Source: Polyangiales bacterium (lineage in GTDB: Bacteria > Myxococcota_A > Polyangia > Polyangiales > Houyiibacteriaceae). Taken from it: a stretch of DNA of 64,000 nt. Where the stretch lies: assembly GCA_046351215.1 (NCBI GenBank), contig JAXLYX010000019.1:1-64000 (forward strand), written 5' to 3'. Shown here one piece after another: positions 30,340-51,144 of this stretch. A program made the translations under genes and the position numbers. Every line of letters begins with the position of its first letter. The first letter of the stretch is position 1. The notes below the pieces were generated by a model, which saw only the letters and a list, made by a program, of their open reading frames with translations, made no database searches and was not told the DNA's origin.

Positions 30340-31742
30340 GCCAGGACGGCGGACGGATCCTCGTGGTCGATTCCGACTACGACACGCTCGATGCCCTGGC
30401 CACGGCGCTGCGCGGGCGCGGACACCACGTGGCCCTCGCCACCGACGGACGGCTCGGTCTGCAGAGCGCCGTCGAGATCGCGGCCGAGGTGATCATCGTC
30501 GACCGCGACGTGCAGGTCTTCGACATCCGCACCTTCCTCGACGTGCTGCGGGACAACCCGAAGACGGCCCACGCCCGCATGTTCGTCATGGGCAAGGGCG
30601 ACGTCGCGCACATCGCGTCGATCGACGGACGCGCCGAGCCGTTGGTCAAGCCCTTCAACGCCAACGAGATCTCCGCGCGCATCGACGAGATCCTCCGCGC
30701 GAAGCGGGCGCCGAAGCGCGAGCCCGAGCTCAAGGGCGACCTCTCGCAGGTCGCGCTCTTCGACCTGCTCCAGGTGTTCGCCGTGAACCACCGCACGGGC
30801 AAGCTCCGCGTCGAGAGCGAGAGCGCGGCCGGCGAGATCTGGCTGCGCGACGGTCGGATCGTCGACGCGACCCAGGGCTACGCCACCGGAGAGAAGGCCT
30901 TCTACCGGATCCTCGCCGTGACACGCGGGCAGTTCGTCTTCCTGCCCGGGCTCGAGCACAGCGAGGCCCGCATCGAGGCGAGCACCGAGTCGCTCCTGAT
31001 GGAGGGCGCGCGGCGCGTGGACGAGGTGGCACGGCTTCGATCGCAGCTGCCCGAGCTCTCGGCGACGATCACCGTCGGCGCCATGACGTCGATCCCGCCC
31101 GGCCTCTCGGCCGACGTCGCGCTCCGCCTCGACGAGCCGCGCGCGATCGAGGAGCTGCTCGACGTGCTGCCCGAGCACGATCTCGAGATCCTCGCGGCGG
31201 TGCGCGATCTCCTCGCCGGCGGGCAGGTCGTCGTCCACGACGTGAACGCGAAGGTCGCGTTCTGCGACCCGGACGAATTGACGGCCCTCTCGGCCGCGAC
31301 GCTCCGCATCCGTCGAGGCGGCGCGGAGGGACCGGCCCGCGTCGGCGTGATCGCACCCCGCGCCCTCGATCTCGGTCGATTCGCGCGGGCGCTCGCCTCG
31401 GTCCGGGAGTACCTGCCGAGCGCCGAGCCTCCCGTCCTCGTCGGCTCCGGCCCGATGGGTGTGATGGGCACGGTCCGGCTAGGGACGACGGAGCTCGAGC
31501 TCTTCGCGCTCCCCTACGAGTCGCCCTACCGCCCCCTGTGGGGCGCGCTCCTCGGATCCTCCACGGTCGTCGTGCACCTCGGCGTCGAGGTCGTCGCGGA
31601 CGACGTGAACGAAGCGCTCCGCGACCTCGACATCCGCATCGTTCGCTCGAAGTCGGGCTACGAGCGCGTGTCGGGGGCCATCGATCTCCTCCGCGACGCG
31701 CTCGGCGCCGCGGCGGGACGGGCCTACGCCGCCCCGAGGTAG
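30336..31742 (+). CDS. Response regulator receiver protein with DUF4388 domain
   Basis: Receiver 'RILVVDSDYD...EVIIVDRDV', followed by 'GDLSQVALFDLLQVFAVNHRTGKLRV', typical of DUF4388. ATGA overlap with the upstream gene. Confidence 0.7.
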   Translation: MSQDGGRILVVDSDYDTLDALATALRGRGHHVALATDGRLGLQSAVEIAAEVIIVDRDVQVFDIRTFLDVLRDNPKTAHARMFVMGKGDVAHIASIDGRAEPLVKPFNANEISARIDEILRAKRAPKREPELKGDLSQVALFDLLQVFAVNHRTGKLRVESESAAGEIWLRDGRIVDATQGYATGEKAFYRILAVTRGQFVFLPGLEHSEARIEASTESLLMEGARRVDEVARLRSQLPELSATITVGAMTSIPPGLSADVALRLDEPRAIEELLDVLPEHDLEILAAVRDLLAGGQVVVHDVNAKVAFCDPDELTALSAATLRIRRGGAEGPARVGVIAPRALDLGRFARALASVREYLPSAEPPVLVGSGPMGVMGTVRLGTTELELFALPYESPYRPLWGALLGSSTVVVHLGVEVVADDVNEALRDLDIRIVRSKSGYERVSGAIDLLRDALGAAAGRAYAAPR

Positions 31743-33301
31743 ATCTTCAGCGTGTCCGCCGCGGCCTTCCGGTCGAAGGGCGAATCGGCGAGCTCGGAGC
31801 GCGTCGAGATCTTCGCGAAGAGCTCGTCGAGGTAGTGGTAGAAGTCCGTGCACTCGGCCACGGATTCGTCGAGGCGCGCCGGGTCGAGCAGGTCCACGTC
31901 GCGGAGCGACTCGAGCGCCGCGAGGAAGCGATCGAGACGCTGGTAGTCGGAGAGCCTCACGAGCTGGTAGCCGATCGCGCGGAAGTGCACCAGGAATTCG
32001 CGGACGAACTGGAAGCTCGCCGAGCCCACCCACCGGTCCGGATCGGACGGCGCCGCGTGGGCCTTCGCGAGGAAGGCGCGGAGGATCTGCGTGAACATCC
32101 AGACGTCACGGCGCAGCCGCTCGCTCGTCGCGCGTCGCACGCCGAGGTCGTCGTCGAGGATGGGCGGAGGCCGCGTCGGCTCGAGCTCCCGGCAGAGCGT
32201 CGCGATCGCGTGGTGGATCGCGCTGCGGAGGCTCGCGGAGGCCAGGCGGAGCTGCCGAGCGAGCTCGTCGTCGGCGACCGCGTCGTCCGGAGCCGGGAGA
32301 TCCCGTTCGAAGACGCGGCGCACCTCGACGCGCAGCGTGGTCGCGAGGCTCTCGAGCGAGCGGCGTAGCGAGACGAGGTCGCTCGCCTGCGAGACCAGGA
32401 GGTCGTAGCGCTCGTGCATGAGGGAGGCGGGCGTCGCGAGCAGCTCCCGCTCGAAGCCCGCGGCCATGCGATCCCCGGCGCGACCCGTGAGGAAGCGGGC
32501 GAGCGCGCGGAGGTCGCTGCGCAGCACCGAGAGCACCACGTACGAGCGACGCGTGGTCTCCGGCTTCTCGGCGTATTCCTCGACGAGGCGCAGGTAGCGG
32601 AGCGCCCGGAAGAGGGCGAGGAAGCAGAGGGCCGAGACGCGGTGCGCGGCGTCGTTCTCGACGCGGTGCAGGATCTCGAGGACCTCGGCGTTCCGTATCC
32701 GGTCGAACTCCGTGCGGAACTCGAGCGTGACGAGGGGGTTGAAGTAGGTGTTGCGCCCGATCTCCCGGACGACGGTGCCGAGCAGGGCGACGTAGAGACG
32801 ATGCGGGATGCGGCCGAGGCGGAGCATGCCGTCGGCCATCTCGAGGAAGCTCGAGAAGGTGTTCCGCAGGAGGAAGAGCGACTCCTCCGGCGTGTCCTGC
32901 GTGAGCTGCTCCTGGATCAGTCGGCTGCGCTCGGAGTCCTCGGGCAGGACCGACTCGAGGTAGCGGCTGAAGACGTAGGCGCGATCCTTCGGTCCGAGCA
33001 GCGCGCGGACCTGCGTGATCGATTCGTCGAGCGCGTCGCGGACGATCCGCAGCTCGTCGTGGAAGTCGTGCGCGACGGCCGCGGTCTTGCGCACCGGACC
33101 CGGATGGTTCCTCGGGTTCCCGAAGCAGGCGAAGCCCTTGAGGAGCATCTCGAGCTCGAAGAGGGTCTCCTCCTTCCGATCCCAGGGAAGGGAGGTGTAC
33201 CAACTGTCGCGGATCTCTCCCTGTTCGCGACGGAGGCCGCGGGTGTCCCGGAGCAGGTTCGCGTAGACGTCGCGGGACGGCAGCGAGATGGCGCGCGGCA
33301 T
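31724..33301 (-). CDS. Hypothetical protein (525 aa, predicted all-alpha), no recognisable motif
   Basis: Long ORF with non-repetitive, non-low-complexity sequence. Same strand as and 17 bp downstream of the SRPBCC-domain gene. 19-bp convergent overlap with the DUF4388 response regulator gene. Confidence 0.5.
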   Translation of the reverse strand: MPRAISLPSRDVYANLLRDTRGLRREQGEIRDSWYTSLPWDRKEETLFELEMLLKGFACFGNPRNHPGPVRKTAAVAHDFHDELRIVRDALDESITQVRALLGPKDRAYVFSRYLESVLPEDSERSRLIQEQLTQDTPEESLFLLRNTFSSFLEMADGMLRLGRIPHRLYVALLGTVVREIGRNTYFNPLVTLEFRTEFDRIRNAEVLEILHRVENDAAHRVSALCFLALFRALRYLRLVEEYAEKPETTRRSYVVLSVLRSDLRALARFLTGRAGDRMAAGFERELLATPASLMHERYDLLVSQASDLVSLRRSLESLATTLRVEVRRVFERDLPAPDDAVADDELARQLRLASASLRSAIHHAIATLCRELEPTRPPPILDDDLGVRRATSERLRRDVWMFTQILRAFLAKAHAAPSDPDRWVGSASFQFVREFLVHFRAIGYQLVRLSDYQRLDRFLAALESLRDVDLLDPARLDESVAECTDFYHYLDELFAKISTRSELADSPFDRKAAADTLKIYLGAA

Positions 33302-33317: not shown

Positions 33318-34397
33318 TCAATGCAGGCTGGCCCCGGCTACGGGCGTCGCGAAGGGGGCGACACCGCGGTCGAAGCCCTGCCGCACGGCACGGACCAGGG
33401 CCGCGTCCGGCTCGGGCCGTGGTGCGAAGGGACGCCGGGACGGAGGCTCGACGAGGACGGCCGCGAGGTGCTCGCCGAGCTCGTAGACGTCGGCCCGGAA
33501 TCGCGCGGGATCGCAGAGCCCGCGGTAGCTGGCCGCGTGGAGCTCGAGCACGAGCTTCGGCAGCTCGCCGTCCGCGAACGCCGCGAGGGCTCGCCGGCCC
33601 AGCTGGGCCACGGTGTCTTCGGGGCGCACGGTGGCGAAGGCGCGGGCGTACGCCGGAGCCACCGCGCCGCTCGAACGCCCGAGGCTGCGCGCGAGGCTCG
33701 CCTCGAAGCCCTGCGCGATCGGCGGCAGGAGCCGGAGGACGAAGCCGGGCTGGAGATAGACCTCGCCCCGGCGGACCTCGTCGACCACGGCGTGGATCGC
33801 GAGGGCGAGGCCGGTCGCCATGCCGGCGCGGTCGTCGTTCGTGGCGCGGAGCTCCTCGGCCAGGGCGACGAGCCGCTCCTCGGCGCGTTCCGCCTCGAGC
33901 CGGAGGGCCGGGAGCCGGGGGGCCTCGTCGAGATCCCGTCGCGGGGGGTACGGGCTCGCCGTCCGCACCTGGGAGGAGAGCTCGACCAGGCGATCCAGGC
34001 TCGACGCGAGCTCGTGGCCGAGGTGCAGACGGGCCGGGAGCGAGAGCAGGGGGCCGCGGAGGTCGACCTCGACCTTCCACTCCACGCGGGTCCGGTTCGG
34101 GCCGAGGGGTCGGAGGACGACCTCCGTGCGATGCCCGCGTATCACACCCGAGCCCACGGCCCGGAACCCGAGGCGCCGCCCCGGCTCCGCATCGACCACC
34201 ACCTCCTCGAGGCTGCCGTGCCGGCCGGGGAGCCCGACGGAGCGGAGGGCGCCGATACCGTTCGGATGCCCGCCGTCCCCCGGCGCGACCGTGCGGATGG
34301 GCGAGGTCGACCAGCGGTTCAAGGCCGACGGGTCGACGAGGAGCCCGAAGGCCACGGCCGGGCTGCAGGCGAGATCGCGATGGAGCTGGAAGAGCAT
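33318..34397 (-). CDS. SRPBCC (START/Bet v1/polyketide-cyclase-like) ligand-binding domain protein with C-terminal helical extension
   Basis: N-terminal about 150 aa 'SPAVAFGLLVDPSALNRWST...RLGFRAVGSGVIRGHRTEVVLRPLGPNRTRVEW' is typical of the SRPBCC fold. Located downstream of squalene monooxygenase. Confidence 0.5.
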   Translation of the reverse strand: MLFQLHRDLACSPAVAFGLLVDPSALNRWSTSPIRTVAPGDGGHPNGIGALRSVGLPGRHGSLEEVVVDAEPGRRLGFRAVGSGVIRGHRTEVVLRPLGPNRTRVEWKVEVDLRGPLLSLPARLHLGHELASSLDRLVELSSQVRTASPYPPRRDLDEAPRLPALRLEAERAEERLVALAEELRATNDDRAGMATGLALAIHAVVDEVRRGEVYLQPGFVLRLLPPIAQGFEASLARSLGRSSGAVAPAYARAFATVRPEDTVAQLGRRALAAFADGELPKLVLELHAASYRGLCDPARFRADVYELGEHLAAVLVEPPSRRPFAPRPEPDAALVRAVRQGFDRGVAPFATPVAGASLH

Positions 34398-34693
34398 CGG
34401 CGACCGAGGTTAGCGCGATCGCGGCCCCTCATCCCGTCCCGACGGCCCGTCGCTCAGCCGCCGAGCTGGCAGAAGGCGTGGACGACGGCGAGGCCGGACG
34501 AGAAGAGGAGGAGGGCCAGCGCGACGCGGGGCATGGGAACCGGGCACTTCTTGGCGCTGGGTTCGACCTGGGGGAGCTCGAGGGCTTCTTGCGTCAGGGT
34601 CATGGCCACCTCGCGACCCAGAGGGTCACGCGCGGAGAACTGGGCCCAGCCGCCCCGATCGGCAAGGGGAGGCTCGGCCGAGGTCCACGAGGG

Positions 34694-36223
34694 TCACGAA
34701 ATTCCGGCCGGGGTGGGGCGCGCCGTGACGCTCCGCTCCACCGGCACCCTGCGTTTCGCCCCGGCCGGCGCGGGAGGAGGGAGGCTCCCTCGGGCCGCGA
34801 CGGCGGCGGCGACCGCGAGAGCGCTCGCCTCGACTTTCTCGGTGGTCAAACGAATCAGGGAGAGGAGGGTGGCGAGCCGGTCGAGGAGCGCCCCCTGCTC
34901 GCGTACGACGGCATAGTACGCGGCGAGGCCGAAGACGCGGACGTACTCCTCGGCGAAGTGGGTGACCGCGACGTCGTCCCCCGAGAGCAGCGCCATGGAA
35001 GCGCGTCGCGCGCGTTCGCTGCGTCGCCAGTAGGCGAAGATCCCCTCGCGCATCGCTCGCGTCGCCGGGGACGCCGCGAGGAAGACCTCGTAGAGCGCGT
35101 CCGTGAGGATCTCGCGCGTCCGCACGAAGGGCGTGCGGGCTTCTTCGTACGCGAGCAGCGCGTCGGCCTGCGTGGGCTCGTCCGCGAGCGCTTCGACCAG
35201 CGCGACGACGTCGTTCGCGCAGACCGTCATGCCGGAGGCCGTGAGCGGATGCGAGCAGCCGGCCGCGTCTCCCACGAGCGCCGCGCCGTCGACCACGGCG
35301 CGCGGCACGCGGATCTTGTGGTTGCCGCAGACCTCGAGCTCGCCCGCGTCGATCGCACGGAGCATGGAGCTCCGCAGCGGCTCCGGCACGACGGGCACGT
35401 AGCGGGCTCGGAGCGTGTCGGCGAGCGCCTTCCGATCCTTGTCGAGCGAGGAGGGGACGTCGATGCACATGCGGACGCGCCCTCCGCCGATCGGATAGGC
35501 GAGCACGGGCCCGGGTGCCCCGAGGAATACGTGGCCGTGTCCCTCGAGGGGGAGCTCGGTGTCCTCGCAGAGCACGGCGACGGTGAACGAGAGCAGCTCG
35601 CTCTTCTCGTCGAGGCCGAGCAGCCCGCGCAGCCGTGAGTGCCTCCCTTCGGCCACGACGACGAGGGGTGCGCGGAGCTCCCGCCCGTCGGCGAGACGCA
35701 CGCCGACGACCCGGCCTCGTTCGCGGAGGACATCGGCGACCTTGGTCCCGAGCTCCATCGACACTCCGTCGAGCGCCGAGACCACGCGGCGCAGGGTCGA
35801 GACCATGTCGCGATGATCCATCGCGATCCCGGTCGCCTCGCCTGTGCCCGAGGCGGGGTACGGAAGCGGCAGCGGGGCCTCGTCCGGTCGCGTCGCGACG
35901 GCGAATCCGACGACGGGCACGCCGCCCGCCCCGAGCATCGGCGCGTGCAGCCCGAGGGACGCGAGCACGCGAGCCCCGCGCGGATGGATCAGCTCGCCGC
36001 GGAAGCGCGGGTCCGGGCCCCTGCGTGCCTCGATCAACGTGACGTTCGTGCCCCGCTTCGCGAGCGCGGCCGCCGCCACGAGTCCCGTGAACCCGCCTCC
36101 GACCACGATCGCCGTGCTCGTCTCCCCACGTCCGCGTCCTTCGTCCGAGCTCGAGAAATCCACGTGCACCTCGCCTTCGTTCGTCGAGAAAAGCGATTGA
36201 AAGGCTACGCACGTCACGGGCAT
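34694..36223 (-). CDS. Squalene monooxygenase (squalene epoxidase)-like FAD-dependent oxygenase
   Basis: 'IVVGGGFTGLVAAAAL' FAD fold, 'GDAAGCSHPLTASGMTVCANDV' (squalene-epoxidase-type GD...HP-L-T-G-G-M-T-V motif). Start taken as the ATG at 36223 ('MPVTCVAF'). The TTG at 36247 or an internal GTG are alternatives. The 748-aa overlapping frame is an artefact. Confidence 0.7.
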   Translation of the reverse strand: MPVTCVAFQSLFSTNEGEVHVDFSSSDEGRGRGETSTAIVVGGGFTGLVAAAALAKRGTNVTLIEARRGPDPRFRGELIHPRGARVLASLGLHAPMLGAGGVPVVGFAVATRPDEAPLPLPYPASGTGEATGIAMDHRDMVSTLRRVVSALDGVSMELGTKVADVLRERGRVVGVRLADGRELRAPLVVVAEGRHSRLRGLLGLDEKSELLSFTVAVLCEDTELPLEGHGHVFLGAPGPVLAYPIGGGRVRMCIDVPSSLDKDRKALADTLRARYVPVVPEPLRSSMLRAIDAGELEVCGNHKIRVPRAVVDGAALVGDAAGCSHPLTASGMTVCANDVVALVEALADEPTQADALLAYEEARTPFVRTREILTDALYEVFLAASPATRAMREGIFAYWRRSERARRASMALLSGDDVAVTHFAEEYVRVFGLAAYYAVVREQGALLDRLATLLSLIRLTTEKVEASALAVAAAVAARGSLPPPAPAGAKRRVPVERSVTARPTPAGIS

Positions 36224-36258
36224 TCGCCACGAGAATCGGTGTAGCAAGCGTTCGCCTC

Positions 36259-36345
36259 GAAACGTGTTCCTCGGCCCTGTCGGACAGGATGAATGTGCAT
36301 CGAAACGTGTTCTCTCGCGCGTCCGGTCGTCCGTGGAACGTGTTC
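36259..36345. promoter_or_regulatory. Three direct copies of GAAACGTGTTC (third copy GGAACGTGTTC) at 36259, 36302 and 36336, in the divergent squalene-monooxygenase / squalene-synthase promoter region
   Basis: Repeats seen directly in sequence, spaced 43 and 34 bp apart, in the 230-bp divergent intergenic region. Candidate transcription-factor binding sites. Confidence 0.35.
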
Positions 36346-36475
36346 ACCGGATCTGCCTCGGAACCGCCCGCCGGATGACACCGGTTCAATCGTGTATCCC
36401 GACGGCTCGCCCGCGTCTTCCGCGGTTCGCCCGAATCCCCGGAGGGGCGTCTTGAAGACGGGCTCGCGGCGGACG

Positions 36476-37417
36476 ATGAGAGGGGCGCTCGCAACGAGAG
36501 GGGAACCCGTGGCCGACCTCGACCAGCTCCTGAAAGAGACCAGCCGTACCTTCGCGCTCGCCATCCCGCTCCTTCCGGAGCCGTACCGGCGCGAGGTGAC
36601 GATCGCGTACCTGCTCTTCCGGATCGCCGACACCTTCGAGGACGCGACCCACTGGGCGCGCGAAGAGCGGATCGCGGCCCTCGAGCGCTTCGTCGAGCTC
36701 CTGCGCGCCCGCGATCGCGACGGGCTCGTGGCCGCCACGAAGCAGTGGCTCGAGCGGAGCCCCAGCGACCACGCGGGCTACCTCGAGCTCCTCGCGGAGA
36801 CGCCCGCGGTCTACGACGCCCTCGAGGCGGTCCGCTCCGAGGCGCGCGTCGCGATCGTGCACCACACGGCACGCACCGCCCTCGGCATGGCGGACGTCGT
36901 CCGCAGGGCCGATGCGCGCGGCTCGCTCGCCCTCGACGATCTCGAGGACCTCCGCCACTACTGCTACCTCGTGGCCGGCATCGTGGGCGAGCTGCTCACC
37001 GATCTCTTCGTCATCCCGCCGAGCCCGGCGGCTCGCGTCTCGCGCATCCTCCGGGAGCACGACGTCGCGTTCGGCGAGGGGCTGCAGCTCGTGAACATCC
37101 TCAAGGACGCCGACGACGACGCGAAGGAAGGCAGGACGTACCTGCCCGCCGGGGTCGCCCGGAGCGAGGTGCTCGGGCTCGCTCGCGCCGACCTCGAGCG
37201 CGCCCGTCTCTACGTCCTCGCCCTGCAGGCGGCGAAGGCCGAGCCTGGCGTCGTCGCCTTCACCGCGCTCCCGGTCCTCCTCGCCCGCGCGACCCTCGAC
37301 AAGTTGGAGGTCGAAGGACCCGGAGCGAAGATCCCGAGGTCCGAGGTCGTCGAGCTGCTCTTCGGGCTGCAGGGGGCGTTGTCGCGGGGAGAAGAGGCGA
37401 TACCCCTCAAGAACTGA
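36476..37417 (+). CDS. Squalene synthase (trans-isoprenyl diphosphate synthase, head-to-head; eukaryotic-type)
   Basis: 'LLKETSRTFALAIPLLPEPYRREVTIAYLLFRIADTFED' (domains I/II, close to the eukaryotic 'SRSFAAVI...YLVLRALDTVEDD'), 'YCYLVAGIVGELLT' and 'GEGLQLVNILKDADDDAKEGRTYLP'. Start ATG at 36476. The ORF-track frame opens at 36293, but that N-terminus is Pro/Arg-rich. Confidence 0.8.
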   Translation: MRGALATRGEPVADLDQLLKETSRTFALAIPLLPEPYRREVTIAYLLFRIADTFEDATHWAREERIAALERFVELLRARDRDGLVAATKQWLERSPSDHAGYLELLAETPAVYDALEAVRSEARVAIVHHTARTALGMADVVRRADARGSLALDDLEDLRHYCYLVAGIVGELLTDLFVIPPSPAARVSRILREHDVAFGEGLQLVNILKDADDDAKEGRTYLPAGVARSEVLGLARADLERARLYVLALQAAKAEPGVVAFTALPVLLARATLDKLEVEGPGAKIPRSEVVELLFGLQGALSRGEEAIPLKN

Positions 37418-37425
37418 GGGAAGAG

Positions 37426-37548
37426 ACGTGCACGTGCACGATCCTCGTTCACGTGCACGGGCCGTCGTGCACGTGCACGTGCACGGTTCGCGTGCACGTG
37501 GACGGTTCGCGTGCGCGTGCACGATTTGCGTGGACGTGCACGCATCTC
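37426..37548. repeat. Dense tandem array of GTGCACG / CACGTG units: (CGTGCA)n followed by about three imperfect 19-bp units of the type GTTCGCGTGCACGTGGACG
   Basis: Directly visible: 'gacgtgcacgtgcacg...cacgtgcacgg...cgtgcacgtgcacgtgcacggttcgcgtgcacgtggacggttcgcgtgcgcgtgcacgatttgcgtggacgtgcacg'. Lies between the squalene synthase stop and the start of the GST-fusion gene. Confidence 0.6.
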
Positions 37549-37567: not shown

Positions 37568-38572
37568 ATGTCCTCCCTCGAGCTCCTGATCGCGAACAAG
37601 AACGTCTCCTCCTGGTCGCTGAGGGCGTACCTCGCGCTCTCCGTGGCAGGGATTCCCTTCCGGGAGACGAGGATCCCCGAGCACCTCGACGAGTCGCGGA
37701 AGTGGCTCGACGCGAAGAGCCCGTCGGGGAAGGTGCCCGTGCTGATCGACGGGGACCTCGTGATCCACGAGTCGCTCGCGATCCTCGAGTACCTCGCCGA
37801 GCTCTTCCCCGAGAAGAAGCTCTGGCCGGAGGATCGGAAGGCACGAGCCTGGGCGCGGGCGATCGCCTCCGAGATGCACGGGGGCTTCGGCGAGCTCCGG
37901 CGGAACCTGACGATGAATCTCGCGCGGCGCGAGGTCCGGGGGGAGCTCGATCCGGGCACGCAGCGCGAGGTCGATCGGATCGGGGAGATCGTCCGCGAGA
38001 CGCGTGCGAGGTTCGGCGAGGGCGGTCCGTTCCTCTTCGGCGCCTTCACGAACGCGGACGCGATGTTCGCTCCCGTCGCGTGCCGGTTCCGGACCTACGG
38101 CCTCCCGCTCGATCCCGTCACGAAGGCGTGGTGCGAGGCGATCTACGAGCTGCCGGCGCTCCGGCGGTGGGAGGCGGACGCGCTCCGCGAGGCCGAGACC
38201 GAGCCGATGATCCTCGGCGTCGGTCAGCGCGTGGACGTGCGGCCGGCCGACTACGAGCATCCGCGTCCTTCGTGGGCCGTGATCTTCGCGTCGAAGCTGA
38301 GGCAGGGGGACCCCGACTACGCCGGAGTCGCGGCGCGCATGGTCGAGCTCGCGAAGTCGTCTCCGGGCTGCCTCGGGATGGAGAGCGCGCGTGGCCCCGA
38401 CGGTCTCGGGATCACGGTCTGCTACTGGTCCTCGCCCGAGGCGATCGCCGCGTTTCGGGCGGACCTCGAGCACGCCGAGGCGCAGCGCAAGGGACGCGAG
38501 CGGTTCTACGAGGGCTTCCACCTCGTCGTGGCACGCGTGGACCGCGAGTCGCGCTTCGGAAGCCTCGCCTGA
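37568..38572 (+). CDS. Glutathione S-transferase fused to a C-terminal ABM (antibiotic-biosynthesis-monooxygenase / Dabb-like) domain
   Basis: GST N-domain 'SSWSLRAYLAL...GKVPVLIDGDLVIHESLAILEYL'. C-terminal about 100 aa 'GCLGMESARGPDGLGITVCYWSSPEAIAAFRADLEHAEAQRKGRERFYEGFHLVVARV' is ABM-like. Confidence 0.65.
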   Translation: MSSLELLIANKNVSSWSLRAYLALSVAGIPFRETRIPEHLDESRKWLDAKSPSGKVPVLIDGDLVIHESLAILEYLAELFPEKKLWPEDRKARAWARAIASEMHGGFGELRRNLTMNLARREVRGELDPGTQREVDRIGEIVRETRARFGEGGPFLFGAFTNADAMFAPVACRFRTYGLPLDPVTKAWCEAIYELPALRRWEADALREAETEPMILGVGQRVDVRPADYEHPRPSWAVIFASKLRQGDPDYAGVAARMVELAKSSPGCLGMESARGPDGLGITVCYWSSPEAIAAFRADLEHAEAQRKGRERFYEGFHLVVARVDRESRFGSLA

Positions 38573-40849: not shown

Positions 40850-41659
40850 ATGCGCCCCCTCCTCGCCGTCGTCCTCGCCTTCCTCTTCCTCGCCGTCCAC
40901 GCCTACGCCCAGGTCCCTCCCACGACCACGGATCCCCGGGCCGTGATGGAAGCCTCGTACCGTCTCGACGCGGGCGATCGCCTGGTCGCCCGCGTCCGGA
41001 TGACGATCACCGACGCGCAGGGCCGTGCCCGCGTTCGCGAGGTCGTGCTCCGCGCGATGGAGTTCCAGGGCGGTCGCAAGACGCTCATGCTCTTCGAGAG
41101 CCCGGCGGACGTCCGCAACACGGGGCTGCTCTCGATCGACCACGACGAAGGCTCCCGGCGCGACGAGCAATGGCTCTACCTCCCGAGCCTGCATCGCGCG
41201 ACGCGCATCGCGGCCTCGCGTCGCTCCGGCTCCTTCGTCGGCTCCGACTTCAGCTTCGCGGATCTCACGGCGGCCGATCCCGACGAGTACGAGCTGCGCA
41301 TGGTGCAGGCGGACGTCGCGGTGAACGGCGAGCCCTGCTGGCGCATCGAGGCCACGCCGCGCACGCCCGCCATCCGCGAGGAGACGGGCTACGAGAAGAT
41401 CGAGGTCTGGATCTCGAAGCGCAGCCTGCTGGCGATCCGGACGAAGGCGACGATGGGGCAGGGGAGGGCGAAGTACGTCGCGCTCGAGGACGTGCGCCGC
41501 GTCGACGGCATCTGGACCGCGCATCGGGTCGTCGCCCGCACCGTCCGCAACGACCAGCTCGAATCGCAGACGGTGCTCGAACGCCGCGACGTGCGGTACG
41601 GTGATGCGACCGTGACCGAAGCCGACTTCACCGTGCAGCGCCTCGAGCGGGGACTCTAG
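40850..41659 (+). CDS. Secreted LolA-like / outer-membrane-lipoprotein-sorting-family protein
   Basis: Signal peptide 'MRPLLAVVLAFLFLAVHAYA'. Size (269 aa) and pattern are typical of small LolA-fold proteins encoded beside MMPL/RND exporters. Family assignment by recall only. Confidence 0.5.
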   Translation: MRPLLAVVLAFLFLAVHAYAQVPPTTTDPRAVMEASYRLDAGDRLVARVRMTITDAQGRARVREVVLRAMEFQGGRKTLMLFESPADVRNTGLLSIDHDEGSRRDEQWLYLPSLHRATRIAASRRSGSFVGSDFSFADLTAADPDEYELRMVQADVAVNGEPCWRIEATPRTPAIREETGYEKIEVWISKRSLLAIRTKATMGQGRAKYVALEDVRRVDGIWTAHRVVARTVRNDQLESQTVLERRDVRYGDATVTEADFTVQRLERGL

Positions 41660-41664
41660 CGTCC

Positions 41665-43170
41665 ATGCGCCTCGGTGCGCTCCTCCCCCCGCTGCTCGTC
41701 GCGGCGTGCTTCGTGTCGTCCGCCGCTCGCGCGCAGACGGTGGAGAGCGCGAGCGATGCCGTCGGCTGGGGCGAGAGCGCGTCCGACGAGAGCGCGGGCG
41801 ATGCGGTCGGCTGGGGCGGGGGCGAGGCCACGACCGCCGAGTCGCCTTCCGAGCCCGTCGACGAGGCTTCCGCGGAGCGTGCGACCTCCGTCGGAGGCAC
41901 GGTCCGCGGCGACGGCGCGATGTGGACCGAGCGTCTCGGCGACAACGGCTTCGCGAAGGCGCGATTCTCCTACGATCTCTGGCTCCGCCATCGGCTGCGG
42001 CGAGGTCGGCTCGTCCTCGGGCTGCACGGCGAGCAGGACTTCGCCTACCTCTACGAGCCCGAGACCTACGATCAGCCGACGATCGACGTCTACGGGTCGG
42101 TGATCCGTGCGGGGGAGAGCTACCTCGCGCTCGAGACCGCGAACGCCGAGCTCGCGATCGGCACGCAGGTCGTCAATTGGGGCCACGGCGAGATGCTCTC
42201 GGTCGTCGATCTCGTGAATCCGCGCGACATGCGCGAGCCCGGCTTGATGGACCCGATGGACGTGCGCATCCCGGCCCTGATGAGCCGAGGCTCGTGGACG
42301 AACGGCCGCACGCGGCTCGAATTCCTCTGGCTCCACGAGGCCTACTTCCGCCTGCGCCCGCCGCCCTTCGGGACGTGGAGCCTCGTCCGCACGGCCGTGC
42401 TCACGGATCCGACCATCGCGATGACGCCGTTCCCTTCCTACGTCGACACCCGCGACGTCTACTGGCAGCAGAGCCCGCGACGCGTGTCGGTGGAGAGTCA
42501 GCAGGTGTTCGCGCGGGTGACACGGACGCTCGGACCGGTCGACCTCGGCTTCTACGCGGCCGACTACCTCGACCCGATCGGCACGGCGACGTTGCCCGAG
42601 GCGAGCGCCTGGGCGAACGCGGCCGTGTACGTGCCCCTCGACCATCTGCGCACGAACACGATCGGCGCCTCCGTCTCGTTCGTGCACCGGGATCTCTCGG
42701 GCTGGCTCGAGGTCGGCTGCGACATCCGGCGCCCGGTGAACACGGTGGATTTCGCCACGTTCGGCATCGGCACGGAGCGGCGCACGCTCTTCCGCTGGAC
42801 GCTCGGCGTCCGCTACCAGGGGCTCCGCGACACGACGATCGCCCTCGAATACGGGCAGGGAACGCAGCAGGGGCCCGGCGGGAGCGACTACCCGCTGCTC
42901 GTGCCGATCTTCCCCGCGACGCTCGCCGCGCGCGTCGAACGGAGCTTCGCACGGGAGCGATTGCGCGCGATGATCGTGGCCGCGCTCAACGGCGAGCACT
43001 TGGCGGGAGGTGGCTTCGCGCGCGCGCAGCTCGCCTACGTGCCGATCGACGGACTGACTCTCTCGATCGGCTACGCGATCTACTTCCCGACCGACACACC
43101 GTCCCTCGTCTGGGGCTTCACGACGAACGATCGCTTGATGGTCGGAGTCCGTTACGATTTCGCTCGTTGA
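41665..43170 (+). CDS. Secreted protein, probable outer-membrane beta-barrel (DUF1302-like?)
   Basis: Signal peptide 'MRLGALLPPLLVAACFVSSAARAQ'. Alternating beta-strand-like composition. The C-terminus 'GVRYDFAR' lacks a terminal Phe, so the barrel call is tentative. Confidence 0.45.
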   Translation: MRLGALLPPLLVAACFVSSAARAQTVESASDAVGWGESASDESAGDAVGWGGGEATTAESPSEPVDEASAERATSVGGTVRGDGAMWTERLGDNGFAKARFSYDLWLRHRLRRGRLVLGLHGEQDFAYLYEPETYDQPTIDVYGSVIRAGESYLALETANAELAIGTQVVNWGHGEMLSVVDLVNPRDMREPGLMDPMDVRIPALMSRGSWTNGRTRLEFLWLHEAYFRLRPPPFGTWSLVRTAVLTDPTIAMTPFPSYVDTRDVYWQQSPRRVSVESQQVFARVTRTLGPVDLGFYAADYLDPIGTATLPEASAWANAAVYVPLDHLRTNTIGASVSFVHRDLSGWLEVGCDIRRPVNTVDFATFGIGTERRTLFRWTLGVRYQGLRDTTIALEYGQGTQQGPGGSDYPLLVPIFPATLAARVERSFARERLRAMIVAALNGEHLAGGGFARAQLAYVPIDGLTLSIGYAIYFPTDTPSLVWGFTTNDRLMVGVRYDFAR

Positions 43171-43281
43171 CCTTGCTTTCCCGACTCCGGCCACTTGTCC
43201 GGATGTAGGTATGGCTCCTACGTGGTGGCACGAGCCGAGCCGACGCGGCTCCTCGCGTGGAACGCACGGGAAAGGAATTCC

Positions 43282-43569
43282 ATGACCGGCAGCCCCATCC
43301 ATCCGACGGACGACGGCCTCGCGGTCGAATGGCTGATGTCGCTCCTCGCTTCCACCGGGGACATCTACGTCCGTCCCATCGCCGGCGGTCCGACGATGGA
43401 GACGTCGCTGCGCGAGGAGCTCGGGCTCGACTCCATCGGGATGGTGGGCGTCTTCTACGCGGTGGTCGACGAGCTCGGTCTCGACGCCGACGAGCGCGTC
43501 GTGGCGGACTGGCGCACGGTCGCCGACGTGGTGCGCTTCGCACGGAGCGGAGCCGAAGGAGCGGCATGA
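43282..43569 (+). CDS. Acyl carrier protein
   Basis: 'LGLDSIGMVGV' phosphopantetheine-attachment (DSx) motif, 95 aa, strong Shine-Dalgarno GGGAAAGGAA. Stop overlaps the next gene (ATGA). Confidence 0.75.
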   Translation: MTGSPIHPTDDGLAVEWLMSLLASTGDIYVRPIAGGPTMETSLREELGLDSIGMVGVFYAVVDELGLDADERVVADWRTVADVVRFARSGAEGAA

Positions 43570-44981
43570 CGAACGCGCCTCCGTGGAAGACGGTCGCGCT
43601 CGATCCCGATGGACGTCGGCGCAGCGAGCCGATCCTCGCAGGGCTCCCCGAGGTGCCTCCGCTCTCGGTCGTCGTGCTCGCCGTCGCCGATCCCGCGTTC
43701 CTGGTGGCGGGCTACGAAGCGGTGCTCGCCCGGGAGGCGATCCCGCTGCTCCTGCACGGCACCACGCCGCTCGCGCTCGCGCGGCGGATGGTCGAGCGGG
43801 TCGGCGCCGCGGCCCTCCTGCATGCGCCCCTCGAGGGGGATCCCCACGTCGAGACCGCCCCGGCGGGAAAGGCCCGACTGCCGGAGCGCGGACATCTGCT
43901 CTGCACGAGCGGCACGACGAGCAAGTCGGGCGAGCCGAAGGTCTACTTCTTCCCCGAGGCCCGGGCCGAGGCGAACGCCCGCGCGCATCTCGCTTCCCTC
44001 GGCCTCGCCGACGCGCGCGGTCTCCGCATCCTCCTGCCGCTGCCCGTGAGCCACGCGTTCGGTCTCGTCTGCGGACATCTCGCGGCGCGGGCGACGGGCT
44101 CGACGCTCCTCGCGTTCACGAGCACGCCCGATCCCGCGACGTTGCTCGAGGTCGCGGCGCGCGAGCAAGCCCAGGTGCTCCACCTGACCCCGCCCATGGT
44201 GCGACTGCTCGCGCGGCGTCACGCGCGCAGAGCCGCCCCCGCGCTGCCCGAGCTCTCGCTCGTCGGCGTGGGCTCGGCGCCGAGCACGGCGGGCGAGATA
44301 CGAACGCTCCACCGGCTCTTCCCCGCGTCGCGCATCGTCGCGACGTACGGGCTCACGGAATGCGGACCCCGCGTGGCGACGTTCCAGGCCGGGACCGCCG
44401 AGCATCCCTCGATGCTCCTCGACGTCGACGACGCCGCGCAGGTGCCCCTCGGCGAGCCGCTCGCGGGCGTCCGGCTCGCGCTCGAGGACACAGGCTCCGA
44501 TGGCGTCGGAGAGCTCGTCGTGCACACGCCTTACGTCGCCACCGGACGCCTCGTCGACGGCGCGCTCGAGCCCATGCCCGCCGGTCCCTTCCGGACGCGA
44601 GACGCCGCGCGTCGCGAGGCCTACGGCGGGATCACCCTCCTCGGTCGCATGGACGGAACCATCGTCCGAGGCGGGACCAACGTGTATCCGACGAACGTCG
44701 AGCCGCTCGTCGAGGACGTGGCAGGCGTCACCGGCGTCTGCCTCGTCGGTCAGCGCTCCCCGACCTACGGAGAGGTCCCCGTGCTCGTCTGCGAGGTCGC
44801 GGCCGGGACGCACGAAGAAGAGCTCCGTCGGTCGATCGAGGCGCGGCTCGCCGACGAGCTCCCGCCGACCGATCGCCCCGTCGAGATCCGCTTCGTGCGC
44901 ACGCTGCCGCGCACCTCGCTCGGCAAGGTGATCCGCGCCGAGGTGAAGTCCAGGCTGGAGGCCCCGCATGGCTCTTGGTGA
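43566..44981 (+). CDS. AMP-dependent synthetase/ligase (adenylate-forming enzyme, short form)
   Basis: 'LLCTSGTTSKSGEPK' (AMP-binding motif I), 'ATYGLTECG', 'GELVVHTPYVATG', 'TRDAARREAYGGITLLGRMD' (motif with hinge Asp), 'SLGKV' terminal Lys. Confidence 0.75.
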   Translation: MTNAPPWKTVALDPDGRRRSEPILAGLPEVPPLSVVVLAVADPAFLVAGYEAVLAREAIPLLLHGTTPLALARRMVERVGAAALLHAPLEGDPHVETAPAGKARLPERGHLLCTSGTTSKSGEPKVYFFPEARAEANARAHLASLGLADARGLRILLPLPVSHAFGLVCGHLAARATGSTLLAFTSTPDPATLLEVAAREQAQVLHLTPPMVRLLARRHARRAAPALPELSLVGVGSAPSTAGEIRTLHRLFPASRIVATYGLTECGPRVATFQAGTAEHPSMLLDVDDAAQVPLGEPLAGVRLALEDTGSDGVGELVVHTPYVATGRLVDGALEPMPAGPFRTRDAARREAYGGITLLGRMDGTIVRGGTNVYPTNVEPLVEDVAGVTGVCLVGQRSPTYGEVPVLVCEVAAGTHEEELRRSIEARLADELPPTDRPVEIRFVRTLPRTSLGKVIRAEVKSRLEAPHGSW

Positions 44982-45999
44982 TCGGCACGCCTCGCTCGGC
45001 GGGAAGGGCGTCGCGATCCGCGGCATCGCCCATCGCCTCGGCTCGCGGAAGGTGACGAACCAGGACATCATCGACGAGCATCGCATCCGCCTGAAGGACG
45101 CGTGGGTGCGCGAGAACATCGGCATCTCCGAGCGCCATTGGGTCGGGCCGCACGAGTCGACCGCGACGATGGCGGCGGAGGTCTGCGCCGAGCTCGTCGG
45201 GAACGCGGGGCTCGCGCCGGCGGCAGTCGATCGCCTGATCGTGGCGACCGTCTCTCCCGAGGTGATCACGCCCTCGACCGCCTGCATCACGCAGTCGATC
45301 TTCGCGCCGGGCACGGCCTTCCCCTGCATGGATCTCGTCGCCGCCTGCGGAGGCTTCCTCTACGCGCTCGACGTCGGCAGGCGCTGCGTACAGACGGGCG
45401 ATCGGAACGTCCTCGTCGTCGCCTCGGAGGTGCGGAGCGCCTTCCTCGACAAGCAGGATCGGCGCACGGTGATGCTCTTCGGCGACGGCGCCGCGGGCGT
45501 GCTCCTCACGCCGGCCCGAGAGGGCGAGGTCGGCATCGTCGACACCCGCCTCTTCGCGGACGGTCGCTTCTGGGAGGCGATCTCGGTGCCGGCAGGCGGC
45601 GTGCGGCGGCCTGCGTCCGCGGAGACGGTCGCGGAGAAGGCCCACTCGATCACGATGAAGGACGGAGCCGCGATCTTCGAGCGAGCCGTCGCCGAGATGA
45701 CGGAGCTCGTGAAGGCGATGGTGCTCGGCCACGGCGCCACGCTCGACGAGGTCGACTTCTTCGTCTTCCACCAGGCCAGCGTGAACATCGTGAGGCGCGT
45801 GCTCGAGGCCCTCGGGATCCCCGAGGAGAAGACCTGGATCAACTTCCCCCGCGTCGGGAACTGCACCGCCGCTTCCGTGCCGATCGCGCTCTCCGAGGCC
45901 GTGCGCGCAGGTCGGGTGAAGCGGGGCGATCTCGTGTGCTCCGTCGCGACCGGAGGTGGGTTCACCGCCGGGACGGCGCTCTTCCGCTGGGAGGTCTGA
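44968..45999 (+). CDS. FabH-like 3-oxoacyl-ACP synthase III / OleA-like thiolase-fold condensing enzyme
   Basis: Cys-His-Asn triad contexts 'MDLVAACGGFLYAL', 'FVFHQASVNI', 'RVGNCTAASVPIAL'. 343 aa. Confidence 0.85.
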   Translation: MALGDRHASLGGKGVAIRGIAHRLGSRKVTNQDIIDEHRIRLKDAWVRENIGISERHWVGPHESTATMAAEVCAELVGNAGLAPAAVDRLIVATVSPEVITPSTACITQSIFAPGTAFPCMDLVAACGGFLYALDVGRRCVQTGDRNVLVVASEVRSAFLDKQDRRTVMLFGDGAAGVLLTPAREGEVGIVDTRLFADGRFWEAISVPAGGVRRPASAETVAEKAHSITMKDGAAIFERAVAEMTELVKAMVLGHGATLDEVDFFVFHQASVNIVRRVLEALGIPEEKTWINFPRVGNCTAASVPIALSEAVRAGRVKRGDLVCSVATGGGFTAGTALFRWEV

Positions 46000-46000
46000 C

Positions 46001-46828
46001 ATGAAGGGAACGCGACGCATCGAGGACTGTCGGGTGTGGGTGACGGGCGGGCGCCGCGGTCTCGGATACGCGTTCGCCGCGCATTTCGCCTCGCTCGGAG
46101 CCGAGGTCCACATCACCTCCCGCGAGCCGGGGAGCGCGGCCGCCGTCGAGGCCGTCGACTCCCTCGCCCACGCGGCGCGCGCCCACGCGGTCGGCCACGG
46201 CACGCAGGCGAAGCCCGTCACGGTCCACGGCCTCGACATGGCCGATCCCGCGAGCCTCGACGCGCTCTCGGACGCGATCCGCCACCATCCGCCGCACGTC
46301 CTCGTCCACGCGGCCCACGTCTTCGCCGACCACGTGCCGATCGTCGGTCGGAAGCCGGAGGACTTCGCCCGAGGTCTCTCGTCGAACGTCGTCTCCGCCT
46401 ACACGATCCTCCGCTCCGCGGCGCGCGCCATGGCGCGCGAGGGGCTCGGACGCATCCTCGTCGTGGGCAGCTTCGCGACGGTGAAGCCGGGCCTCGGACA
46501 GGTCGGCTACGTGACGGAGAAGGCGGCGCTCGAGGGCATGGTCCGCTCCTTCGCCGCGGAGTTCGCGGCGCGCGGCGTCCACGTGAACGTCGTGCATCCG
46601 GGCATCTGCGACACCGAGAACGTCCGCGACCGCGTGCCCGAGGTGATCCGCGACGCGTACGCCGCACGGACCAGCGCCGGGAGGCTGCTCTCGCCGAAGG
46701 AGGTCGTGCTCGCGTCGTTCTCGCTGTGCGATCCCCGGCACGCCGGGATCACGGGCCAGTCGCTCGCGATCACGGGCGGCGCCGATCTCGCGGGCCTCGT
46801 GGCCGGCACCTCGGGGGCGGAGACGTGA
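46001..46828 (+). CDS. Short-chain dehydrogenase/reductase (SDR), ketoreductase-like
   Basis: 'VWVTGGRRGLGYAFA' dinucleotide fold, 'YVTEKAALEGM' (YxxxK), 'VHPGICDT'. GGGAGG Shine-Dalgarno sequence, 1-nt gap after the KAS III stop. Confidence 0.8.
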   Translation: MKGTRRIEDCRVWVTGGRRGLGYAFAAHFASLGAEVHITSREPGSAAAVEAVDSLAHAARAHAVGHGTQAKPVTVHGLDMADPASLDALSDAIRHHPPHVLVHAAHVFADHVPIVGRKPEDFARGLSSNVVSAYTILRSAARAMAREGLGRILVVGSFATVKPGLGQVGYVTEKAALEGMVRSFAAEFAARGVHVNVVHPGICDTENVRDRVPEVIRDAYAARTSAGRLLSPKEVVLASFSLCDPRHAGITGQSLAITGGADLAGLVAGTSGAET

Positions 46829-48326: not shown

Positions 48327-48559
48327 CCGTCACCGAATCCGACCTCAAGAAGATGATCTCGGCGATCTGCCGCGTGCCCGAGGAACGCATCGCGCGCGAG
48401 ACGCGCTTCGTCGCCGACCTCCACATGGACTCGCTCGCGAGCCTCGATCTCCTCACGGAGCTCGAGGAGGTCCACGGCGTCGTGATCACGCAGGAGGAGG
48501 CACGCCACCTCCAGACCTTCGGTCACCTGCTCGATTTCCTCGAGAAGCGCGAAGACTGA
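48323..48559 (+). CDS. Acyl carrier protein (second copy)
   Basis: 'ADLHMDSLASLDLLTELEE' DSL motif, 78 aa. ATGA overlap with the upstream gene. Confidence 0.75.
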   Translation: MTVTESDLKKMISAICRVPEERIARETRFVADLHMDSLASLDLLTELEEVHGVVITQEEARHLQTFGHLLDFLEKRED

Positions 48560-48563
48560 GCCC

Positions 48564-51140: not shown

Positions 51141-51144
51141 CCGA

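Follow-up and report, generated by a model that had tools for sequence, protein, structure and literature searches.

Sterol synthesis is well documented across the phylum Myxococcota (PMC8237579; bioRxiv 10.1101/2024.11.01.621555; PMC10202945). Most myxobacteria combine a one-step squalene synthase with a squalene monooxygenase and an oxidosqualene cyclase (PMC8237579), and the last two enzymes, Smo and Osc, have been used as the committed steps of the bacterial pathway (PMC10202945). Osc is not always colocalized with Smo, and it is reportedly sparse in the Polyangiaceae and Sandaracinaceae (bioRxiv 10.1101/2024.11.01.621555). In the Osc-Sqs-Smo cluster of the Myxococcaceae/Archangiaceae type, represented here by two Archangium loci (L021 and L030), the squalene synthase (Sqs) and Smo genes form a divergent pair, with a cyclase of the cycloartenol-synthase type (bioRxiv 10.1101/2024.11.01.621555) directly beside Sqs. 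Minicystis rosea DSM 24000 (CP016211.1, about 3.5229 to 3.5256 Mb; P0151 and P0119) also carries a divergent Sqs/Smo pair around a long spacer, with no cyclase within 10 kb, yet this organism makes cholesterol (bioRxiv 10.1101/2024.11.01.621555).

Our analysis of a 64-kb stretch of DNA from a Polyangiales bacterium (the window) revealed, at 34694..37417, two intact genes transcribed divergently from a 345-bp spacer, an arrangement similar to that of M. rosea. The minus-strand gene (34694..36163; 489 amino acids; GTG start) encodes a squalene monooxygenase (squalene epoxidase; EC 1.14.14.17) homolog, Smo, and the plus-strand gene (36509..37417; 302 amino acids; GTG start) encodes Sqs, a homolog of the one-step squalene synthases of the FDFT1/Erg9 type (EC 2.5.1.21). 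Sqs and Smo are 59% and 51% identical, respectively, to their M. rosea counterparts and 54% to 58% and 46% to 50% identical to those of the Archangium-type cluster, known in the literature as the Stigmatella/Cystobacter type. While that cluster has its cyclase next to Sqs, the window contains none for at least 27 to 34 kb on either side of the pair. We consider it likely that the two proteins, expressed from a shared control region, catalyze the first two dedicated steps of triterpenoid/sterol synthesis and that their oxidosqualene goes to a cyclase encoded elsewhere in the genome.

The first-pass annotation had located both open reading frames on the correct strands, and each peptide block that it quoted is present in the translations. 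Its stop ends, 34694 and 37417, also hold, but its starts are probably too far upstream. The ATG codons at 36223 and 36476 would give proteins of 509 and 313 amino acids, whereas gene callers place the starts on identical public contigs 60 and 33 nucleotides farther downstream, at 36163 and 36509, and the onset of coding potential fits these shorter calls. These public contigs, none longer than 45 kb, stem from activated-sludge assemblies. Both genes have a coding-type composition (GC3 of 0.86 to 0.93, with a window GC content of 71%) and are free of frameshifts and premature stops.

The earlier assignment of the minus-strand protein to the squalene epoxidases was supported by both sequence and fold. 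The Pfam profile PF08491 (SE) matched Smo with 141.3 bits, far above its gathering cut-off of 20.1 (E of 4e-41; profile positions 2 to 267 of 276), and human SQLE was its best PDB relative by sequence, with 129.5 bits versus 64.7 for the runner-up. In a fold search, the AF2 model of Smo (pLDDT of 82.8) matched SQLE from end to end, the C-terminal helical domain included, with a TM score of 0.80 to 0.87 over about 455 columns and an E value of 2e-32, compared to 7e-22 for the runner-up, PqsL. A grouping with UbiH-type hydroxylases, which the first-pass annotation had named as the outcome that would speak against its assignment, was not seen, as the UbiH-family NCBIfam models reached at most 97 bits against cut-offs of at least 224.

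At the level of individual residues (human numbering), Smo keeps the GxGxxG and GD408 motifs, E153, E165, R234, and Y335, along with the majority of the pocket residues. GxGxxG, E153, Y335, and D408 are also kept in all or nearly all of 81 other Smo-family sequences where the position is covered. In human SQLE, E153 is the acidic residue that ends beta-2, and Y335 is the tyrosine that forms a water bridge to the flavin N5. Smo has in common with human SQLE (PDB 6C6N, 6C6P, and 6C6R) and fungal Erg1 a three-domain fold. Besides the FAD-binding and GD motifs and Y335, the hydrophobic substrate tunnel of the human enzyme is also largely retained. The two proteins are nevertheless only 29.5% identical, and Smo, unlike SQLE, lacks an N-terminal regulatory or membrane domain and carries the changes F166L, I162F, G418A, F495W, and P505S. 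No cytochrome P450 reductase that might serve as its electron donor was evident. By homology, the minus-strand gene is predicted to encode a squalene monooxygenase that converts squalene to (3S)-2,3-oxidosqualene.

One active-site difference deserves separate mention. At the positions of the hydrogen-bonded pair Gln168/Tyr195 of the human enzyme, the window Smo has H60 and F87, and human SQLE loses more than 90% of its activity when Y195 is changed to Phe (PMC6327030). Yet most representatives of the bacterial Smo family, 112 of 149 sampled without bias, carry the His/Phe pair, which also occurs in M. rosea and in members that are linked or fused to cyclases. The Gln/Tyr pair thus characterizes the eukaryotic enzymes rather than the whole family. 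To judge from these alignments, the replacement lowers the detailed mechanistic identity with human SQLE but not the family membership of Smo.

The plus-strand protein was likewise placed with the eukaryotic-type squalene synthases. It matched PF00494 (SQS_PSY) with 117 bits (E of 1.4e-33), and TIGR01559 was its best NCBIfam model (87.8 bits), ahead of HpnD (60.4), HpnC (48.2), and CrtB (40.5). The TIGR01559 score lies below the equivalog cut-off of 286.75 bits, with profile positions 8 to 202 of 337 matched, and no NCBIfam model claims Sqs at its own cut-off. The first-pass annotation had also asked whether this protein groups with the phytoene/dehydrosqualene synthases. When a profile of the Sqs family was searched, eukaryotic squalene synthases scored 66 to 84 bits (from profile positions 6 to 7 up to 221 to 233), whereas CrtM and phytoene synthase scored 44 to 49 bits over positions 143 to 226 only. 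In the fold search with the Sqs model, ranks 1 to 41 were all squalene synthases, and CrtM appeared from rank 42. The family profile and the fold search together overrule a pairwise phmmer search in which the CrtM-like 8is6 emerged, with 49.6 bits, marginally ahead of the squalene synthases.

Sqs and human FDFT1 (PDB 1EZF and 3VJ8), as well as the fungal and trypanosomal enzymes, have an all-helical fold in common (TMq up to 0.77). The Asp-rich, Mg2+/diphosphate-binding motifs DTFED and DADDD, which correspond to human D80 to D84 and D219 to D223, are invariant in 24 family members. For the residue comparison with FDFT1, PDB alignments confirm residues 46 to 242 of the human sequence. In human numbering, Sqs keeps S51, R52, and F54 of the SRTF flap, Y73, R77, D80/D84, Y171, Q212, N215, D219/D223, R228, and F288. 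The identity to FDFT1 is 28.7%, and the protein differs from it by the absence of the C-terminal transmembrane anchor at a length of 302 residues, a Lys for R218, an insertion near residues 60 to 80, and a shorter JK-loop region of uncertain alignment. There, the NADPH-binding K315/R317, which the reductive second half-reaction requires, fall opposite a gap in the MAFFT alignment, and a match by eye suggests that 'GAKIPR' of Sqs, in which K274 is near-invariant and R277 invariant, could correspond to human 'GAVKIRK'. The three-step HpnC/HpnD/HpnE route to squalene and CrtM/CrtB have the PF00494 superfamily and the head-to-head prenyl condensation chemistry in common with Sqs. HpnC, HpnD, CrtM, and CrtB nevertheless score lower at every level, and we reject them as its identity; the partner genes for HpnE and CrtI are absent from the 64-kb window.

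The first-pass annotation saw no oxidosqualene cyclase in the window, and none emerged when every credible gene was annotated with Pfam or when the sequence was scanned for motifs and searched by tblastn with three cyclases from myxobacteria. Neither was CYP51 or any other sterol-tailoring gene found in the 64 kb. The context of the pair in relatives comes from a survey of 80 other Myxococcota loci or genomes. The divergent Sqs/Smo pair occurs in 43 of these, including M. rosea, and a cyclase lies within 10 kb in 30. Of 22 pair-bearing loci whose flanks extend for 8 kb or more in both directions, 18 have a cyclase within 10 kb. This linkage supports the proposal of the first-pass annotation that the pair marks the entry into a sterol-type pathway. 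A simple neighbor-joining tree groups about 27 of the 80 loci into an orphan Smo subclade with neither Sqs nor cyclase nearby; the open reading frames of its lower-GC loci were taken with a simple ORF picker. Of all 34 loci flanked by 8 kb or more in each direction, 9 have neither Sqs nor cyclase. The window Smo, on a long branch, falls outside the orphan subclade and beside a clade that includes M. rosea as well as Polyangia loci with a linked cyclase. Within the collection of species-representative genomes, the best match reaches 53% identity.

Among the called proteins of metagenomic relatives, we furthermore found in-frame Smo-cyclase and Smo-Sqs fusions, and one fusion relative is clustered with a cyclase gene and with Rieske and 3-beta-HSD genes resembling SdmA/SdmB. 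Our literature search returned no report of natural bacterial Smo-Osc or Smo-Sqs fusions, although one may exist. Loci L011, L022, and L085 also seemed to encode Smo-cyclase fusions (single open reading frames of 1073 to 1151 amino acids), but these were discarded, as the Smo part lies in another frame; these long frames are artefacts because stop codons are scarce at high GC.

The spacer between the two genes (36164..36508; 345 bp) presumably holds both promoters. Scans of the locus for sigma-70 promoters and terminators and against Rfam yielded no credible match in it, whether to a sigma-70 consensus, a terminator, or an Rfam family. It does contain three plus-strand copies of an operator-like inverted repeat with half-sites GAAC and GTTC, namely, GAAACGTGTTC at 36259..36269 and again at 36302..36312, and GGAACGTGTTC at 36335..36345. 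These are the only occurrences in 64 kb, where 0.33 would be expected, and all lie inside the Sqs/Smo spacer. Aligned with the spacer of a relative of about 90% identity, the spacer is 85% identical overall with a diverged center, and the motif stands out as a conserved island within the diverged part; copy 3 reads GAACGCGTTC in the relative, a perfect palindrome. The M. rosea spacer, at 421 to 424 bp, lacks the GAAACGTGTTC motif. The triple repeat is lineage-specific and probably binds a regulator.

The neighboring genes are specific to this lineage as well. On the minus strand, 90 nucleotides downstream of Smo, a 49-amino-acid open reading frame with a hydrophobic C terminus (34454..34603), called on all near-identical contigs and in the relative of about 90% identity, is possibly cotranscribed with Smo. 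It is followed on the same strand by a gene for a 359-amino-acid SRPBCC/START-like protein (Polyketide_cyc2; 33318..34397; PF10604, E of 4.9e-15) with no PDB relative by sequence, which may be an operon partner of Smo. Downstream of Sqs, a plus-strand gene (37568..38572) encodes a glutathione S-transferase fused to a YqjZ/ABM-like domain, whose position next to Sqs is conserved only in the relative of about 90% identity and the near-identical contigs. As conserved pathway partners, all three were rejected, since no homologues stand beside Smo in the 80 other loci. They are also missing at the M. rosea pair, whose neighbors are wholly different and include a geranylgeranyl-reductase-like gene 2.3 kb downstream. 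A 525-amino-acid protein without a Pfam match (31724..33301) was considered as the missing cyclase and dismissed as a conserved hypothetical backbone gene; its homologues in Sandaracinaceae and other Myxococcota (60% to 70% identity) adjoin RuvABC or unrelated genes, not Smo.

From the observed family membership, fold, and catalytic residues and the linkage in relatives, we infer the two enzymatic activities, a regulator, and a cyclase in the genome, and we propose the following model for this uncultured, Sandaracinaceae-like member of the Polyangia. Sqs would condense two molecules of farnesyl diphosphate to presqualene diphosphate and, by an NADPH-dependent rearrangement and reduction, form squalene, which FAD-dependent Smo would epoxidize to (3S)-2,3-oxidosqualene. 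The shared 345-bp control region would drive both genes divergently, with a regulator probably binding the three inverted repeats. Oxidosqualene would most likely pass to a cyclase encoded elsewhere, as in M. rosea, and on to lanosterol- or cycloartenol-derived sterols.

In a different scenario, the enzymes are genuine but the lineage has no oxidosqualene cyclase, so that oxidosqualene or squalene has a non-sterol fate or the pathway is a relic. Possible fates include 3-hydroxylated hopanoid-type compounds made via squalene-hopene cyclase, an arborane-type triterpenol, and the product of an unrecognized cyclase. The lack of a cyclase in 64 kb, the patchy occurrence of Osc in the Polyangiaceae and Sandaracinaceae (bioRxiv 10.1101/2024.11.01.621555), the orphan subclade, and the well-flanked loci without Sqs and cyclase are all compatible with this, as is the lack of synteny between the Sqs/Smo module and related genomes, which means that the module may be mobile. 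However, neither gene is damaged, the catalytic residues are all in place, the models are confident, most comparable pair-bearing loci have a cyclase nearby, M. rosea makes cholesterol with none near its pair, and an absence from 64 kb carries little weight when the whole genome probably measures some 10 Mb or more. We therefore regard this scenario as unlikely. In its more specific form, an intact, selectively maintained, and specifically regulated module without a canonical cyclase anywhere in the genome, whose oxidosqualene is the end product or feeds a non-sterol or unrecognized cyclization, the proposal is quite improbable; if it were true, the SRPBCC/START-like protein and the 49-amino-acid membrane peptide might handle the epoxide lipid.

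It is very doubtful that the pair is a recently acquired, nonfunctional or silent cassette, a remnant of horizontal transfer without a role in its host. The module does sit between backbone genes that are arranged otherwise in relatives, and its three neighbors have so narrow a distribution, but composition and GC3 match the host, the reading frames are undisturbed, and two lineages about 10% apart in protein sequence have both kept the pair along with the motifs in its spacer, which argues for purifying selection. Least credible is a misassignment of both enzymes, with the synthase being of the carotenoid type (dehydrosqualene/phytoene) or an HpnC/HpnD protein and the flavoprotein a generic UbiH-type aromatic/prenyl hydroxylase or a carotenoid-modifying enzyme. 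The marginal lead of 8is6 over squalene synthases in the pairwise search, the many subthreshold UbiH-family matches, and the TIGR01559 score below cut-off could be cited in its favor. Yet the profile and fold searches rank all eukaryotic squalene synthase structures above CrtM and phytoene synthase, Sqs keeps the squalene synthase-specific Y171, F288, and flap, and no CrtI, CrtY, or HpnE is encoded in the window. Likewise, the UbiH models all stay below half of their cut-offs while PF08491 scores seven times its own, and cyclases are found linked or fused in relatives. Profile, fold, residue, and linkage evidence thus largely refutes this assignment.

Taken as a sterol-pathway entry module, the pair extends the known carriers of the first steps of sterol synthesis by a further uncultured Myxococcota lineage, this one associated with wastewater. 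The first-pass annotation had described bacterial squalene epoxidation as confined to a few lineages; myxobacteria do carry the trait, as it stated, but within the Myxococcota, with sterol producers throughout the phylum, it is not rare. As this first stage is already well documented in the phylum, our finding is real but ordinary, and it contributes modestly to the map of where sterol genes occur in bacteria. The distribution of these genes bears on the reading of sterane biomarkers, and a myxobacterial origin of eukaryotic sterol synthesis has been proposed (PMC8237579). Specialists may be interested in by-products of the survey, namely, the Smo-cyclase and Smo-Sqs fusions, the bacterial His/Phe in place of the human Gln/Tyr, and the large orphan Smo subclade, which leave that ordinary status unchanged.

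Finally, the spacer after Sqs is filled by an array of GTGCAC-type palindromic repeats (37426..37542, plus strand; unit CGTGCACGTGCACGGTTCG) that forms a long hairpin, with a folding energy of -90.6 kcal/mol (z of -4.65), and is mostly missing from the relative of about 90% identity. Subthreshold miRNA-type matches, the sole hits of the Rfam, sigma-70, and terminator scans, were set aside as products of this palindromic repeat. The hairpin may terminate transcription after Sqs or insulate this gene from the glutathione S-transferase gene.

The divergent gene pair at 34694-37417 is a known module, correctly identified, in a new uncultured lineage, since Myxococcota are already documented as phylum-wide sterol producers, with one-step squalene synthase (SQS), squalene monooxygenase (SQMO), and oxidosqualene cyclase (OSC) in most of them (PMC8237579). 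SMO and OSC have been reported from 103 isolates and 21 MAGs (PMC10202945), and 121 Osc sequences have been detected in Myxococcota MAGs (bioRxiv 10.1101/2024.11.01.621555). Because the window has a G+C content of about 71%, mechanical ORF lists are crowded; codon-position composition nonetheless singled out two real genes in this interval (GC3 of 0.86 to 0.93). The peptide blocks quoted in the first-pass annotation are all present in their translations, and its stop-codon ends hold, but its starts need to be moved downstream by 60 and 33 nt. Gene calls on identical public contigs give a 489-aa squalene monooxygenase (Smo; 34694..36163, minus strand) and a 302-aa squalene synthase (Sqs; 36509..37417, plus strand), both with GTG starts and both in agreement with the onset of coding potential. 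The two genes are transcribed divergently from a 345-bp spacer.

Several lines of evidence confirmed the proposed assignment of the flavoprotein to the squalene epoxidases rather than to the generic UbiH type. The squalene-epoxidase domain PF08491 matches Smo over nearly the entire profile at 141 bits (cut-off, 20.1), while the only NCBIfam matches, to UbiH-family and other hydroxylase models, each remain below half of their cut-offs. Among all PDB sequences, human squalene monooxygenase (SQLE) ranks at the top (129.5 bits), followed by PqsL (64.7 bits). An AlphaFold model built with 15 family members as input (pLDDT 82.8) superimposes on three human SQLE structures with TM scores of 0.80 to 0.87 (E value of 2e-32) over about 455 columns, including the C-terminal helical domain, a match ten orders of magnitude better than those to PqsL and kynurenine monooxygenase. 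Smo also retains the GxGxxG motif, E153, E165, R234, Y335, the GD motif, and the majority of the residues that line the inhibitor/substrate tunnel.

In human SQLE, Q168 and Y195 are hydrogen bonded, and the Y195F replacement abolishes more than 90% of activity (PMC6327030). The window Smo differs in carrying H60 and F87 at these positions (codons within 34694-36163). As one of the two peptide patterns used in our genome scan included this histidine, we recounted the residues in an exhaustive, pattern-free search. At the positions of Q168, Y195, and Y335, 112 of the 149 nearest cluster representatives have H/F/Y, 11 of 149 have Q/F/Y, and only 2 of 149 have the eukaryotic Q/Y/Y; the His/Phe pair is thus the normal state of this bacterial Smo family. 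The pair also occurs in relatives adjacent to, or fused with, a cyclase. The sequences suggest that it may be a compensated alternative arrangement of the active site.

For the plus-strand protein, the question was whether it is a eukaryotic-type squalene synthase, as first proposed, or a synthase of the phytoene/dehydrosqualene type. PF00494 matches Sqs, and the top-scoring NCBIfam model is TIGR01559, for eukaryote-type squalene synthases (87.8 bits, far under its equivalog cut-off), ahead of HpnD (60.4) and HpnC (48.2) of the three-step route and of carotenoid-type CrtB (40.5). A pairwise search of the PDB gave an ambiguous order, which was settled by a profile of 24 family members: eukaryotic squalene synthases fill its first ten places (66 to 84 bits, profile positions 6-7 to 221-233), and matches to CrtM and phytoene synthase reach only 44 to 49 bits, confined to positions 143-226. 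Consistent with this decision in favor of squalene synthase, the 41 best fold matches of the Sqs model (pLDDT 92.9) are squalene-synthase chains, with CrtM appearing from rank 42. Conserved residues comprise S51, R52, and F54 of the flap, Y73, R77, both Asp-rich motifs, Y171, Q212, N215, R228, and F288, the comparison being made to the human sequence (FDFT1), of which residues 46-242 were confirmed by PDB alignments; the NADPH-loop region can be aligned only tentatively. In contrast to the eukaryotic enzymes, the window Sqs has no C-terminal anchor. Taken together, sequence comparison and structure modeling leave us highly confident in the predicted identities of both enzymes.

As initially noted, there is no oxidosqualene cyclase in the window: Pfam searches of all credible genes, motif searches, and tblastn across the 64 kb detected neither a cyclase nor CYP51 nor any sterol-tailoring gene. 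We consider it quite probable that a cyclase encoded elsewhere in the genome turns the product into sterols. The main alternative, a lineage that has no cyclase and puts oxidosqualene to a different use, seems improbable to us. Gene context in relatives bears on both readings. Across 80 loci, drawn from Minicystis rosea, other Myxococcota genomes, and unclassified MAGs, a divergent Sqs adjoins Smo in 43, a cyclase gene (DCTAE or DCTSE motif) lies within 10 kb of Smo in 30, and both are present in 24. At the 34 loci flanked by 8 kb or more on each side, the pair occurs in 22, 18 of which also have the cyclase. M. rosea, a cholesterol producer (bioRxiv 10.1101/2024.11.01.621555), is one of the four pair-bearing loci without it, and Osc and Smo are co-localized in Myxococcaceae but not in Nannocystaceae (bioRxiv 10.1101/2024.11.01.621555). 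At the M. rosea locus, a geranylgeranyl-reductase-like flavoprotein (13695-14891 of L003) is encoded 2.3 kb downstream of Smo.

About 27 orphan Smo genes from Myxococcota (L032, L039, L041, L048, L050, L056, L060, L063, L068, L070-L073, L075-L077, L080, L081, L084, L086, L088, and others) form a subclade whose members have neither Sqs nor cyclase within 10 kb and are surrounded by housekeeping genes (E1 dehydrogenase, TPR protein, peptidases). These may be sterol enzymes with unlinked partners or enzymes with another substrate. In a neighbor-joining tree rooted on human SQLE, which is indicative only, the window Smo falls outside this subclade; together with a relative whose proteins are about 90% identical, it forms a long branch beside the clade of M. 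rosea and cyclase-linked Polyangia loci. The MAG of uncultured Archangium Ja1_bin-1494 carries two Smo loci, one with Sqs and cyclase and the other with neither (L023 and L044), so Smo paralogs exist within single genomes.

Natural gene fusions, as read from sequence, are an independent tie of this Smo family to both Sqs and cyclase. An exhaustive search recovered in-frame Smo-cyclase (P0460, P0503) and Smo-Sqs (P0404, P0456, P0428, P0439, P0451) fusions from metagenomic bacteria; some of the latter retain, between the Smo and Sqs domains, a weak remnant that resembles a cyclase. At one locus (L093, 7623-11150), the gene after Sqs is a Smo-cyclase fusion. Another (L092, 8001-11402) is a compact sterol cluster in which Rieske and 3-beta-HSD genes, resembling the bacterial C-4 demethylation pair, precede a Smo-Sqs fusion and then a cyclase. 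We found no report of such natural bacterial Smo fusions in the literature searched.

Identical Smo and Sqs proteins recur in activated-sludge metagenomes, and samples in which the organism is present include DRR046817/ERZ937806, SRR30909870, SRR30909877, DRR545330, and ERZ27282941. The lineage with about 90% protein identity retains the entire neighborhood, whereas the locus is absent from the species-representative genomes, among which the closest Smo is 53% identical. Within the Sqs-Smo spacer, which gave no match to a sigma-70 consensus or to a known RNA family, the inverted-repeat motif GAAACGTGTTC (half-sites GAAC/GTTC) occurs at 36259-36269, 36302-36312, and 36335-36345. These are its only three matches in the 64 kb (0.33 expected), and in the alignment with the approximately 90% identical relative they stand as conserved islands where the spacer has diverged most. 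The motif is absent from the Sqs-Smo spacers of all other lineages. We infer that the copies are candidate operators, putative sites of a lineage-specific regulator. The spacer between Sqs and the following GST-ABM fusion gene is filled by an array of GTGCAC-type palindromic repeats (37426-37542; unit CGTGCACGTGCACGGTTCG, period 19, also 6) with a predicted hairpin of -90.6 kcal/mol (z of -4.65). Seven of the eight matches to the repeat core in the window lie inside the array, which is mostly missing from that relative, where the spacer measures 73 nt.

Smo is followed on its own strand by a 49-aa ORF, an SRPBCC protein gene, and a gene for a 525-aa hypothetical protein; neither these nor GST-ABM adjoin Smo in the other lineages among the 80 loci. 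The 525-aa protein (31724-33301), all-helical and without a Pfam or NCBIfam match, is 60 to 70% identical across Sandaracinaceae (including Sandaracinus amylolyticus) and other Myxococcota (713 matches) and is, judged by alignment, an unusually well conserved unknown. Its identity to the Sandaracinaceae proteins points to a probable Polyangia/Sandaracinaceae-like source organism. Its gene belongs to the backbone, the other side of which (PatA_N, GGDEF, DapF, YkuD, sigma-54 activator, Rpe) is syntenic with relatives. There, it abuts RuvABC, not the Smo module; it adjoins RuvABC in L091 and lies near RuvC in S. amylolyticus (L090).

A lipid-type cluster at 40850-52575 encodes LolA-like and DUF1302 outer-membrane proteins, an acyl carrier protein (43282-43569), an acyl-AMP ligase, KAS III, an SDR, an alpha/beta hydrolase, a Haem_oxygenas_2-like iron enzyme, and an MMPL-type RND transporter with a sterol-sensing domain (48558-51140), with a FadL-like porin encoded next in the opposite orientation. 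Synthesis and export of an acyl lipid are possible roles of this cluster. Unrelated to the Sqs-Smo pair, a globin-coupled diguanylate cyclase (Protoglobin plus GGDEF) adjoins a SIR2_2-domain protein (11636-12640 and 12661-13692).
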